A stretch of DNA of 64,000 nucleotides from a virus (taxonomy: Duplodnaviria > Caudoviricetes): IMG/VR virus record IMGVR_UViG_3300007512_001664, positions 64,001 through 128,000 of that record; one strand, written 5' to 3'. Positions 17,172 to 22,354 of this stretch are shown piece by piece. The notes below the pieces were generated by a model, which had not been told where the DNA came from, ran no database searches, and saw nothing but the letters and a program-made list of their open reading frames with translations. The stretch's first letter is position 1. Every line of letters begins with the position of its first letter. Both the position numbers and the translations under genes were made by a program.

Positions 17172-17768
17172 GTGAAGTCATTTATCGATTTTATTAACGA
17201 GGCAGGAAAGTTTCCTACAGTTACATTAACTCAACCGTATTCGCAATCGCGTCCCGGAGCAGGAAAGCGGTTCCGTAATAAGAAAGACCCCAAAAGAGCC
17301 AATCAACAACAAGCTCTAAGAGATCAAGGCTATCGCTGGGATAAAGAAAAGAAAAAATGGGTTAAAGGCACTGTTCCTGTCAGTGCATCAACCGTGGAGT
17401 CTAAACAAGCCAAGTACATTGAAGAAGCCAAAAGAGGTCGTGAGAGTTATGAGACACGTAACCCAGATTTTGTTGATGCTTTATTAGATATTTTTTCTGC
17501 CCTCCAAGATCGAAACATAGAAAAAGGAATGACGTTAAATCGTTTTACAAATCAAGACGTTATTAAACTAATCGATGATCATGAAGTTTATGGTATTAAT
17601 GGCACTAATCCATGGCCTTCACAACATAAGGAGCGTTATATATCTAATCTTCGTCGTCTACTTGGAGTTGAAACACCCGGAAGAAAGCAAAGAAAAGATA
17701 CAGGAAAAGAGCAGGGTACTCATGATACAGGTGATGAATGGTCAGATTGGCTTAAACCGGAAGCATGA
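17172..17768 (+). CDS. putative internal head protein with CTS-like leader
   Basis: MKSFIDFINE|A leader followed by a basic segment. Confidence 0.6.
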   Translation: MKSFIDFINEAGKFPTVTLTQPYSQSRPGAGKRFRNKKDPKRANQQQALRDQGYRWDKEKKKWVKGTVPVSASTVESKQAKYIEEAKRGRESYETRNPDFVDALLDIFSALQDRNIEKGMTLNRFTNQDVIKLIDDHEVYGINGTNPWPSQHKERYISNLRRLLGVETPGRKQRKDTGKEQGTHDTGDEWSDWLKPEA

Positions 17769-19141
17769 GAGATACAGAAGCACAACTAATTTTTGAGACT
17801 TACGTAGAAGCAAAGGATGTAAGTCGACGAGATTTCTTTAAGCTATTAGGTAGAGGTGCTGCAACAGTCGCGACAGTTCCTTGGACTAAACTACTATCAG
17901 CTCCTAAGTTAGCTGCAGCAGTCACAGCACCATTTAAGATTGGTGCAGGTACTATACTTAATCCTCAGGCTCTGCATTGGTACTACGTTCGTAAGTTTGT
18001 TAACAAAGCAGAGGAAAGCGGTCTCACTCCAGTAGATGTAACAGATGAAAGGCATTACGAGGACCCAGTCGACGAGATATCTTTTGAAGCATTTGAGTGG
18101 GTTTCCAAGAATGTAATTAATATGTATGTTGATGATCGAGATCATGCTGTAGATAGAGAAGGAGACACGATAGCACCCACTATGGCTGAGTTGATCAATG
18201 ATCACGGATGGGATGAAGAGCATTTTATAGATGATCCTAATTTTCCGGAATGGGCGAAACCTCTTCTCACTAAAGATGAAGAAGATATGACTGATGAAGA
18301 GGAAGAAAAATATCAGAACTTAATGAATTCAAAGTGGTTTGATAAGCAGATGGTGATTAACTGGGATGGTGAGCAGGGCCATGGAGCTGATGAAGAGGTA
18401 GAAGAAATGCTAAGAAATTGGACTGGGTGGCATCACAAGTCGCCAGGGTCAGGTGATGTCGGGGGCCCCCTTCATGGTGATGAACTTATTACTACTGTCT
18501 TTGATTACATTGTAGATCTCAATCGCAAACGTAATGATGAGGGAAAGTTTATGGACATTAATGAGATAATGAAGATGGACTTTAAACAAGAGTTCTTACC
18601 TGGTGTTGTAAAGTATGCGAGAGAGCTGGCTGTAGCTCGATCAACTCGGTTGACAGGAAACCAACAGAGACAAGCAGGGCAAGATTTTCAAAAAGCTAAA
18701 GACGAGCTACAAAAAGACTACCTACCTAAAAGACCAGGCCAACCAGCTGAGTGGGATGATGTACATCCGGATGTTGAATGGTGGCACGAAGGTGATTTTA
18801 AATGGTGGGAGCGTCGGTTTGATGATGATGTTATTAATAGTGATAAGATCGAACAATATAAGGTTTTTGCTGATAAAATAATACAGAATCCTTTCGAAGA
18901 CGGCTTACTGTGGCCAACCACTGGGGAACCAGCTTATAGCCCTGAAGAAAGCAAAGCGATAATTAAAAAACTTAAACAAGAAGCACATGATTGGTTGAAA
19001 TGGTATGAGATGACAAAGGATAGTAGAAAGCCTAATCAAGCACATATCAAACATCCATATGGAGTAGGTAGACCTCAGAGCGGTTTACAAACAGCTAGTA
19101 CTAAGCCTACATTTAAACAGTTCTTTTTAATAAATAATTAA
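17765..19141 (+). CDS. DKDA-leader family protein 1, with twin-arginine motif
   Basis: MRDTEAQLIFETYVE|AKDVSRRDFFKLLGRGAATVATV, acidic body, C-terminal PTFKQFF. Confidence 0.65.
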   Translation: MRDTEAQLIFETYVEAKDVSRRDFFKLLGRGAATVATVPWTKLLSAPKLAAAVTAPFKIGAGTILNPQALHWYYVRKFVNKAEESGLTPVDVTDERHYEDPVDEISFEAFEWVSKNVINMYVDDRDHAVDREGDTIAPTMAELINDHGWDEEHFIDDPNFPEWAKPLLTKDEEDMTDEEEEKYQNLMNSKWFDKQMVINWDGEQGHGADEEVEEMLRNWTGWHHKSPGSGDVGGPLHGDELITTVFDYIVDLNRKRNDEGKFMDINEIMKMDFKQEFLPGVVKYARELAVARSTRLTGNQQRQAGQDFQKAKDELQKDYLPKRPGQPAEWDDVHPDVEWWHEGDFKWWERRFDDDVINSDKIEQYKVFADKIIQNPFEDGLLWPTTGEPAYSPEESKAIIKKLKQEAHDWLKWYEMTKDSRKPNQAHIKHPYGVGRPQSGLQTASTKPTFKQFFLINN

Positions 19142-19142
19142 G

Positions 19143-19466
19143 ATGAACGAACTTAGCAATGCAGTAACACCAACGTTTAATAAGGTAATTAAGCGTTTAT
19201 CTGAAGTAGAAGATGGTGATGCTTTATCAATAGCTAATGGTCATGTAAAAAATACCCCCAGTCTTGAGGGAACGCCTACAGTATATACACTTGATCCAGC
19301 AGATGGTAATTCTGGTATAGTACAATATTCAATGAAAAGAGAATCTGGCGGTGGATCAATGGTAGTAATTGTTAGAGAGGGTCAAGTTATCTGGTCTGGA
19401 ATTTCTATTGAAAGAGTAAGCAACATTGCAAATGCAGCGTTAATGAGCCCGGGAATAGGTAAATAA
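19143..19466 (+). CDS. late hypothetical protein
   Basis: TAAATA at 19131-19136 upstream. Confidence 0.6.
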   Translation: MNELSNAVTPTFNKVIKRLSEVEDGDALSIANGHVKNTPSLEGTPTVYTLDPADGNSGIVQYSMKRESGGGSMVVIVREGQVIWSGISIERVSNIANAALMSPGIGK

Positions 19467-19474
19467 TTAGAACA

Positions 19475-20863: not shown

Positions 20864-21357
20864 GAGATAAAGACGCACATTTAATGATGGAAGCTTTACA
20901 AAAGGTGAATGAAGCTGAGCAAGATACACCTAGCGCTACAGCAGAAGTCCTACGACAAGTGCATAAAGAAATTGATGAGTATATGACTACGGCTGTATTT
21001 ACCGTAGGTGGTGAGGATTTAAAATGGAACGTACTTGCTATTATCAAGCAATATTTGACCGATAACCCGTCCGCCTTGCCGACGACCCCACGTGGATATG
21101 ATGAACCGTCAAATGAACCGTCAAATGATCCGTTGCAACGTGTCGCTAACTTAGCTATAGATAAAATATCAGACGGCGCACTCTCTAACCTTTCAATCAA
21201 TGATATTATTGATGTGTCTATAGAAGATATCGAGTCTGAGACAGGTGAACGACAATATGATCTTAATGAACCTAACACTCGTGATAGAATTAAAAATATA
21301 ATGATTACTGCGTTAACTAAAGATCGAAGCCATTTAATGAAAGGATATGAACGATGA
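20860..21357 (+). CDS. DKDA-leader family protein 5 (KEIDEYMT module)
   Basis: MRDKDAHLMMEALQKVNE|A. Contains a 12-bp tandem repeat at 21101-21133 (EPSN x2). Confidence 0.7.
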   Translation: MRDKDAHLMMEALQKVNEAEQDTPSATAEVLRQVHKEIDEYMTTAVFTVGGEDLKWNVLAIIKQYLTDNPSALPTTPRGYDEPSNEPSNDPLQRVANLAIDKISDGALSNLSINDIIDVSIEDIESETGERQYDLNEPNTRDRIKNIMITALTKDRSHLMKGYER

Positions 21358-21758
21358 AAGATAAAGATGCACAACTAATGATGGAAGCTTTAAAAGAAGC
21401 TGTAGGTGATTATACGGACGACCCAACTGCCGATGATGGTGGAGCAGCAGCCCAGCGCCGCACCGGTGCGTGGTTAAATGCCTATGCACCTCGCGATGAG
21501 GGATTCGGTGGTGACTTTTTTGGCTTTTTTAATAGTATCGAATTTGACGAGGCCGGCGCTCATGCGCTGGTGCAATGGTTAACACAATATAAACAAAACT
21601 ATACAGGCCCAAATGTCGACCATCCAACACGGAAGCCGCCGCATGCACAGGGCTATCAGACTCGAGACCAGTATGACGCGGATGAAGCTGAGCGAGCGCG
21701 AGCGGATCGCGAAGCAGAAGCTCGGCCAGGCAGGCAACATGGCGGCTATCCGGGATAG
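21354..21758 (+). CDS. DKDA-leader family protein 6
   Basis: MKDKDAQLMMEALKE|A. Confidence 0.7.
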   Translation: MKDKDAQLMMEALKEAVGDYTDDPTADDGGAAAQRRTGAWLNAYAPRDEGFGGDFFGFFNSIEFDEAGAHALVQWLTQYKQNYTGPNVDHPTRKPPHAQGYQTRDQYDADEAERARADREAEARPGRQHGGYPG

Positions 21759-21785
21759 CAGGATACAGATAAGATTAATAATACA

Positions 21786-22052
21786 ATGAGAGATAAAGAC
21801 GCACAACTAATTTGGGAAACGCTTCAAGGTGCACCAGCGCCTTTACCAGTTGATAGAAATGGTAAAGAAATACAAGTAGGTGATATAATTCAAGGAGAAG
21901 CTCCTTCTAGGAATGAACCAACACCTGAGTTTGTTGTAGTAGGCGTTAGTCGTGATCCGAATATTGAAGATGCTATAAGTGTAGTTCCACTGGATGTTAA
22001 GACACAATCAGCTAAATGGTTTAGTGTTGTTGATAGTATAGGAGGTAATTAA
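21786..22052 (+). CDS. DKDA-leader family protein 7 (possible SH3/YopX-like beta module)
   Basis: MRDKDAQLIWETL; VDRNGKEIQVGDII. Confidence 0.65.
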   Translation: MRDKDAQLIWETLQGAPAPLPVDRNGKEIQVGDIIQGEAPSRNEPTPEFVVVGVSRDPNIEDAISVVPLDVKTQSAKWFSVVDSIGGN

Positions 22053-22354
22053 TGTTAGATAGAGAACAAGATAAAGCAATTAACGAGTCCATGAAGCAAT
22101 TTCGTGAAGGTCCTCAATTACCTGGTTATACAGACGAGGATCAAGCAGAAGGTCTAGTAAGAGCTAATGTTAATAGATTACTTGCTAACATTGAAAAGAA
22201 CAATCCTCAGAGTGTAGATGAGTTTAAAAGCTATGCTCGAGGTGAAGTATTACGGTGGAGTAAAGAAAATTCACAGGTAACATCTGATACTGCAGAGATT
22301 ATGTATCAGTTACTCTTAAAGAACTCAGAAATTGAACAACCACCTGTTCAATGA
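22052..22354 (+). CDS. divergent leader-family protein
   Basis: MLDREQDKAINESMKQFRE|G. Confidence 0.55.
   Translation: MLDREQDKAINESMKQFREGPQLPGYTDEDQAEGLVRANVNRLLANIEKNNPQSVDEFKSYARGEVLRWSKENSQVTSDTAEIMYQLLLKNSEIEQPPVQ

Follow-up and report, generated by a model that had tools for sequence, protein, structure and literature searches.

The 64,000-nucleotide stretch of DNA analysed here (the window) comprises bases 64001-128000 of a 200,819-bp virus record with direct terminal repeats (IMG/VR record IMGVR_UViG_3300007512_001664). Seven tandem open reading frames (ORFs) in the window open with the motif M-[KR]-D-[KT]-[DE]-A-[QH]-L-[IM]-[MWF]-E-[AT], here termed the DKDA leader (leader genes 1 to 7 in Table 1; genes are called by their start positions). 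All starts and N-termini were as proposed earlier by a model from the sequence alone (the sequence-only reading). A six-frame scan of the whole genome returned the peptide motif seven times, each directly behind a start codon and all within this 4.3-kb stretch. The array genes are tightly packed; successive gaps (-4, +1, +8, +5, +1, -4, -4, +27, -1 and -4 nt) range from -4 to +8 nt apart from the single one of 27 nt. ATGA[AG]AGATAAAGA[CT]GCACA[AT][CT]TAAT is common to 20275, 20591, 20860, 21354 and 21786. Alignment of the starts confirmed that leader DNA is near-identical in these five genes; the likeness begins exactly at the ATG and the upstream sequences are unrelated. The 22052 product begins with MLDREQDKAINE. 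Its first 12 residues are identical in a protein of the related contig L009 which overall is only 36% identical, and intermediates between this type and the main leader, e.g. MxD[KR]DD[RK]LIAE, were found in related arrays. Therefore, 22052 is a true divergent relative, as had been supposed when it was counted as a divergent eighth member.

Table 1. Genes and late-promoter-like sequences at the leader locus (window positions; arrows mark putative cut positions).
Feature	Position	Strand	Remarks
CTAAATA, late-promoter-like	15044..15050	+	before 15064
Upstream late gene, 439 aa	15064..16383	+	N-terminus MSFEPFIQ, then RR-G-F-L motif; motif region resembles those of fused relative P0001
Gene with T4-type N-terminus MIPFKQYIAE↓A	16384..16968	+	compare T4 ipII/ipIII MKTYQEFIAE↓A
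CTAAATA, late-promoter-like	17160..17166	+	before 17172
Gene (GTG start) with T4-type N-terminus MKSFIDFINE↓A	17172..17768	+	
Leader gene 1, 458 aa	17765..19141	+	leader residues 1-13, second site YVE↓A, twin-arginine-like motif, acidic helical body, C-terminal PTFKQFF
ATAAATA, late-promoter-like	19130..19136	+	before 19143
Conserved gene inside array, 107 aa, without DKDA leader	19143..19466	+	kept in both IMG/VR relatives
GTAAATA, late-promoter-like	19459..19465	+	9 nt before ATG of 19475
Leader gene 2, 264 aa	19475..20269	+	leader MKYDTEAQLIWEA; His/Cys-rich body, CxxCxGxG zinc-ribbon-like piece
Leader gene 3, 104 aa	20275..20589	+	acidic body; no relatives among collected loci
Leader gene 4, 90 aa	20591..20863	+	
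Leader gene 5, 165 aa	20860..21357	+	leader helix, linker, module in common with 19475, confident four-helix C-terminal module
Leader gene 6, 134 aa	21354..21758	+	
Leader gene 7, 88 aa	21786..22052	+	LIWE↓T form
Divergent-leader gene (MLDREQDKAINE↓S)	22052..22354	+	12 of 12 leader residues same in L009
Downstream gene with FKEY motif in N-terminus (MKMLFKEYW)	22351..22956	+	L009 homologue MKAFKEYF

A degenerate DNA pattern of the leader recovered 55 metagenome contigs, some of them named TARA, and two IMG/VR relatives in which the arrays are syntenic. Together with the window these 58 sources carry 125 leader ORFs (105 unique). Searched against 596 Gb of bacterial and archaeal genomes, the pattern matched nothing, and IMG/VR yielded only the two relatives, whether by leader pattern or by the 19143 protein. 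A 32-column leader profile was run against 1.84 billion proteins (E up to 0.001). Among 49 matches, 48 began at residue 1 and the remaining one was a repeat protein; all 48 true matches were thus N-terminal. Because the profile matches also start at residue 1, the strict N-terminal position is not a product of the ATG in the search pattern. At least 48 leader-protein clusters at 50% identity reached significance. Comparison with 50,697 phage records, by megablast of the array region and by tblastn of the 17765 protein, gave no match, and a full-text literature search for leader strings found no paper containing them.

The unique sequences give the logo M-[RK]-D-K-[DE]-A-Q-L-[IM]-[MW]-E-[AT]-[LYM]. 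Thirteen residues are near-invariant, and information is at background beyond position +2 from the Glu. Since the original search pattern prescribed this residue, a separate check used leader-like N-termini unconstrained at that position, and 39 of 39 had the Glu. In AlphaFold2 models of 17765 and 20860 the leader is a low-confidence helix, set apart from the better-modelled parts by a low-confidence linker.

Conservation of this kind may reside in the nucleic acid. The element could be a 5' coding cassette for translation initiation or control, or a homology patch for recombination, and the peptide would have no role of its own. Codon usage speaks for this: compared with the genome, rare codons prevail at Asp5 (GAC, 86% vs 22%), Ala6 (GCA, 95% vs 35%) and Leu8 (CTA/CTG, 73% vs 16%). 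The absence of a Shine-Dalgarno motif upstream of the leader genes and the shuffling of the bodies described below agree with it as well. However, Leu8 (CTA/TTA/CTG), Ile9 and Ala12 vary synonymously, and codons 9-10 differ by at least two bases among Met-Met, Ile-Trp and Ile-Phe (ATGATG to ATTTGG or ATTTTT), yet stay hydrophobic. Replacements are conservative (M/W/F, I/M). Furthermore, the 20 nt upstream of the leaders are not conserved, the genome contains no out-of-frame or non-coding copy, and an Rfam scan of window positions 14500-23500 found no RNA family. Synonymous variation together with conservative replacement indicates selection on the leader peptide, and an element acting solely as nucleic acid is improbable. 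Because the rare codons are retained in the leaders of window 17765-22090, the copies appear to be homogenised or constrained at the DNA or RNA level too, which suggests gene conversion or recombination between copies, or an mRNA constraint.

The proteins behind the leader are diverse. Stripped of it, 117 bodies fell into 33 single-linkage sequence clusters, most without detectable similarity to one another. Their lengths are 40-924 aa (median 144), folded domains included. They are mostly acidic; the isoelectric point is below 5.5 in 85 of 104, with a median of 4.8 vs 6.4 for the genome. In the largest cluster small modules recur in mosaic fashion, i.e. zinc ribbons, two helical modules and an SH3-like piece, and the C-terminal part of 19475 has a module in common with 20860 (53% identity over 53 residues). 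The sequence-only reading, which had called the bodies mostly unrelated, was thus right in the main, but not for every pair. It had also proposed a search of metagenomes for arrays with variable bodies behind the leader, and the 125 ORFs and 33 body clusters are what such a search brought to light. The outlying leader gene at genome position 56761 codes for a GNAT-like protein (acetyltransferase), the metagenomic homologue of which passes the Pfam cut-off. It carries a further leader variant, MDHEGQLIWEAY, and lies outside the array at genome positions 56761-57324 (L070:1262-1825), 7.2 kb before the window and behind a TAAATA. In contig L050 a GNAT-like homologue is found directly upstream of the 923-aa fused protein described below.

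Leaders were exchanged between homologous bodies. From residue 19 on, the 19475 body is 57% identical to an L009 protein which has a different leader, ending in IVE↓SMY. Among the homologues of 17765 the leader is of the DKDA type, IVQIVLE↓A, RLIE↓Q or a hybrid, MRDEQLTFKQFFNE↓A; common to these leaders is solely that they end in hydrophobic-x-Glu, 2-6 residues ahead of one and the same RR motif. Equally, all further leader types in the arrays, including that of 22052, end in I/L-x-E followed by a small residue. The simplest alternative would be an ordinary paralogue family in which the N-terminus is the last conserved remnant and has no tag function. Tandem genes and modules common to some bodies are what such a family would leave; the swapping of leaders at a sharp boundary, the lack of detectable similarity between most bodies, and 13 near-invariant residues in 105 unique sequences with information at background right behind them are not. 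We regard plain paralogy as very improbable. The comparisons support the view of the leader as an N-terminal tag which is independent and exchangeable and is carried by many unrelated bodies, the plug-in tag that the sequence-only reading had postulated.

What might such a tag address? A gp21-type S77 prohead protease is encoded at genome positions 6940-7602 (PF03420, 104 bits), and the genome also has a gp23 major capsid protein (PF07068, 298 bits). Between the two genes lies a scaffold-like (gp22-like) ORF rich in hydrophobic-x-E sites. The segment EQLLEAI of this scaffold was considered as leader-like, but it is shifted by one residue relative to the motif and fails to match it, and the idea was dropped. 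Tail sheath and baseplate wedge genes are located inside the window, and the S77 protease was also found in both IMG/VR relatives (G001, G002). Identity of the gp23 to that of cultured phages reaches only about 31%, T4-like cyanophages being nearest. By this identity and by the set of gp21, gp23, scaffold and tail genes, the source is a deep-branching uncultured T4-like myovirus, probably marine.

T4 gp21 cuts after L/I-x-E (PMC9026906, PMC3012670, PMC5694885). The leader ending L-[IM]-[MWF]-E-[AT] conforms to this rule, L/I-x-E and then a small residue, with P3 being about half Ile and half Met. Of 97 unique proteins, 35 have a second hydrophobic-x-E↓small site 3-12 residues past the leader, at nine times the frequency found elsewhere in the bodies; in the window 17765, 20275, 20591, 20860 and 21354 have one (5/7). 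Propeptides often hold several cut sites (PMC9026906, PMC5694885). In the sequence-only reading most leaders ended at such an L/V-x-E site further downstream. These second sites do exist in five window genes; the conserved cut site, however, is most likely directly after the invariant Glu11, and the downstream ones would be optional second cuts. A complex prediction with the S77 protease and residues 1-40 of the 20860 protein gave a score of 0.01, which speaks neither for nor against binding.

The array has a late-promoter-like context. TAAATA is found 5-32 nt upstream of 63 of 246 ORFs vs about 6.6 expected, i.e. about 10-fold enriched. ORFs so preceded include gp21, tail sheath, baseplate wedge, 15064, 19143, 19475, 22975 and the outlying GNAT-like gene, and NTAAATA precedes 15064, 17172, 19143, 19475 and 22975 by 8-14 nt. 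The copy which the earlier model had noted before 19475 is among them (Table 1). This distribution fits T4-type late promoters. As no TAAATA copy lies between 19459-19465 and 22963, 19475-22956 would be one likely late transcript. The leader combines a gp21-type Glu site, which the sequence-only reading had already noted, with an S77 protease in the genome and late-promoter-like surroundings.

T4-type N-termini occur in the same genome, on the neighbours 16384, 17172 and 15064 and on other genes elsewhere. In the T4 record ipII and ipIII start with MKTYQEFIAE↓A, and ipI with MKTFKEF. The 923-residue relative P0001 consists of three fused modules. Its internal junction QLTFKRFFNE↓A aligns with QLIFETYVE↓A of the 17765 leader in the window, and at the junction after it stands PTFKQFFKE↓S, with which a separate gene begins in L009. 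Both motifs are similar to the T4 leader. The claim of a second, non-T4 leader therefore stands in part: a second leader type does exist beside the T4-type N-termini, but on homologous proteins the DKDA leader looks interchangeable with the T4-type motif and would not mark a separate pathway. Each 17765-family module ends in a T4-like K-P-T-F-K-E/Q-F-F, placed after a nearly invariant HPYGVGSPQSGLQT (window 19103-19138; P0001, P0004-P0017); it stands either at the protein end or at the in-frame junction to the next module. Other late genes with T4-type N-termini are at genome positions 34490-35656 (MKTFKQFFE) and 35869-37119 (MLTYKKYF), both in L069, and the product of the latter is a DUF6267 protein (PF19782, E 5e-87).

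In T4 the 10-residue capsid-targeting sequence (CTS) consists of an N-terminal part for targeting and a C-terminal part for processing, and it is enough to package foreign proteins (PMC9026906, PMC3012670). With Asp at the T4 position that corresponds to Glu11, processing is blocked and targeting is not. We consider it moderately probable that the DKDA leader is the lineage-specific counterpart of the CTS, cut after its Glu and carried by recombining small acidic cargo proteins. Its N-terminal half is conserved, for which a mere cut site would have no need; this, the Glu site, the matching protease, the late context and the exchangeable cargo together argue for such a function. The leader would probably form an amphipathic N-terminal helix. 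Its first part, M-[KR]-D-K-[DE]-A-Q, may dock the protein to the assembling prohead core, and the last part, L-[IM]-[MWF]-E↓[AT]-[LYM], would serve as the cleavage site, behind the Glu, for the gp21-type S77 prohead protease of the phage, with an additional cut a few residues further on in about a third of the proteins. The tag would sit on recombining small, mostly acidic modules made late in infection. The tagged proteins would end up inside the head and could pass into the next host together with the DNA, as do T4's internal proteins and its Alt.

Several points weigh against this assignment. The phage is uncultured, so the tag reading rests on sequence comparison, from which we infer docking, cleavage, packaging and delivery. 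P3 is Met, not Leu or Ile, in half of the leaders. Most bodies are acidic, whereas T4 IPII and IPIII are basic. The rare codons GAC, GCA and CTA are retained in the leader far above genome usage. One leader protein has a Tat-like (twin-arginine translocation) signal, which could point to export and not to packaging. Finally, the T4-type N-termini in the same genome make the need for a second leader type questionable.

Acidity of the bodies, partly modelled with low confidence or disordered, would equally suit propeptides of prohead-core or scaffold accessory proteins which are degraded and expelled at head maturation, as are T4 gp67 and gp68, without any delivery of effectors. The scaffold gp22 is as rich in Glu sites, and second cut sites behind the leader would fit degradation. 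On the other hand, 33 body clusters with shuffled modules suit a structural scaffold role poorly, a GNAT-like enzyme, zinc ribbons and helical domains with a confident fold are found among the bodies, and Glu sites are nine times rarer inside the bodies than just behind the leader. We consider degraded core proteins unlikely, albeit the weightiest of the alternatives; next come a tag for another late process, a nucleic-acid element and plain paralogy, in this order.

The tag may be used in a different late process, either export or membrane targeting, e.g. as a Tat n-region, or docking to a common chaperone or hub such as the 19143 product, which is conserved in the arrays. In the 17765 family the leader Glu is followed by S-R-R-x-F-L, a weak hydrophobic stretch and A-x-A (window 17819-17920, residues 19-52). 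RR-x-F-L begins 2-6 residues after the Glu in 17765 and relatives and about 15 after it in one subgroup with an extra FFRE↓A junction. In the fused relative (L050:765-3536) the stretch lies at residues 13-40 and 236-264, with an internal recurrence behind TFKRFFNE↓A. A similar twin-arginine-like stretch is present at window 15085-15150. With TIGR01409 (cut-off 16.7 bits), relatives of 17765 scored 15.4, 16.3 and 18.9 bits, the last being an internal copy; the window protein itself reached only 8.8 bits and had no Pfam match at E up to 0.1. Moreover, the RR motif is confined to 1 of 33 body clusters, and the leader variants of this very family have nothing in common but the hydrophobic-x-E ending. 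We consider a tag for export or for a common hub rather unlikely.

Capsid targeting and Tat export may also be combined in a two-step address. After removal of the leader in the head by the protease, the twin-arginine signal would be exposed 2-6 residues from the new N-terminus, and the Tat system of the next host would re-export the delivered protein to the periplasm. More broadly, the leader would mark injected effectors across metagenomes, driven by recombination and including GNAT-like and zinc-ribbon proteins. The 17765 family shows this order of leader and then RR, and fused multi-module relatives contain it twice. We deem this scenario unlikely.

If the DKDA leader is a capsid address, how does it compare with the T4 CTS? 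In both, an N-terminal peptide of 10-20 aa, ending in hydrophobic-x-Glu and a small residue, is the sole common part of diverse, fast-evolving cargo proteins, and gp21-type protease, gp22 scaffold, gp23 and a late-promoter-like context are found in the genome. T-even internal proteins are likewise diverse, with only the CTS conserved (PMC3012670, PMC9026906). The CTS is carried by IPI, IPII, IPIII and Alt, and T-even phages are polymorphic at their internal-protein loci (Mullaney and Black, 1996; Repoila et al., 1994; both as cited in PMC3012670 and PMC9026906). The leader differs in sequence (MRDKDAQLMMEA vs MKTYQEFIAE); it is one residue longer, its P3 is often Met, and it matches the CTS only in the hydrophobic-x-E-A ending. 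The arrays have 7-8 genes vs 1-3 in the T4 type, with mostly acidic bodies of shuffled modules, and the leader coexists with T4-type N-termini in the same locus, while T4-type motifs are also located at C-termini and fused-protein junctions.

Related processing is known from ejection and inner-body proteins of the giant phages phiKZ, 201phi2-1 and SPN3US. There, the prohead protease cuts propeptides after Glu, often at multiple sites, the paralogues gp53 and gp54 of SPN3US have identical N-termini and diverged bodies, and the mature N-terminus of one ejection protein holds a transmembrane segment (PMC5694885). However, these propeptides mostly exceed 100 residues, belong to another phage lineage and are not a short tag on dozens of unrelated proteins (PMC5694885). 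Cargo-loading peptides of encapsulins and encapsulation peptides of bacterial microcompartments are short, probably helical tags which also send unrelated cargo into a protein shell. This is an analogy only; no maturation protease takes those tags off, they are frequently C-terminal, and no such shell gene is involved here. In contrast to precursor arrays of ribosomally synthesised and post-translationally modified peptides (RiPPs), the bodies are 40-924 aa with folded domains and not short cores, and no RiPP enzyme family was present among the neighbours scanned.

The novelty is smaller than the sequence-only reading had claimed, since T-even internal proteins are an established case of diverse cargo with a plug-in capsid tag (PMC3012670, PMC9026906). 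New are the sequence of the leader, arrays of this size and spread, an acidic cargo of mosaic build, the occurrence of several leader types in one locus, and fused multi-module relatives with T4-like junctions. If the leader is indeed a capsid address, it would be a mark for phage-head cargo comparable to a signal peptide and readable from sequence. Candidate packaged or injected proteins of an uncultured deep-branching T4-like lineage could then be listed directly from metagenomes. Most of these are small, acidic and functionally uncharacterised, a class to which in T4 the anti-restriction protein IPI* belongs. The CTS principle would be older and more flexible than the T-even examples suggest, with several leader types, fused precursors and motifs at C-termini or junctions, and a candidate second packaging tag for phage engineering would be at hand.

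Family and fold searches said little about cargo function. Pfam, PHROGs and NCBIfam gave no informative family for the array proteins and large relatives beyond weak zinc-ribbon-like and Tat-like matches; 19475 matched PHROGs of unknown function, and 20860 had one weak match of this kind. AlphaFold2 models of 17765 and 20860 found nothing above noise in the PDB (Foldseek), AFDB clusters, BFVD and a wide VIA-align search, and the ESM Atlas look-up of 19475 gave a low-confidence model with no usable match. The His/Cys-rich module of 19475 (residues 23-87, window 19541-19735) also occurs in L071 (3449-4765). It is 42-48% identical to proteins of cultured T4-like cyanophages annotated as 'possible cytitidyltransferase', of which the P-HM2 copy starts with MKSLSDFTKKSKVAE↓A and resembles the T4 ipI leader. 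Among the metagenomic leader proteins, P0054 has an HExxH motif, P0024 and P0061 have a predicted membrane segment, and several bodies contain DnaJ-type CxxCxGxG zinc ribbons. Inside the block of leader genes, at window 16969-17163 (+), a phage-encoded ribosomal protein bS21 is located (PF01165, E 2e-17; phrog_21469), and related contigs have it conserved in this position. A methyltransferase-like protein (phrog_2675, E 3e-10) is encoded immediately downstream of the block, at window 23269-23862 (+).

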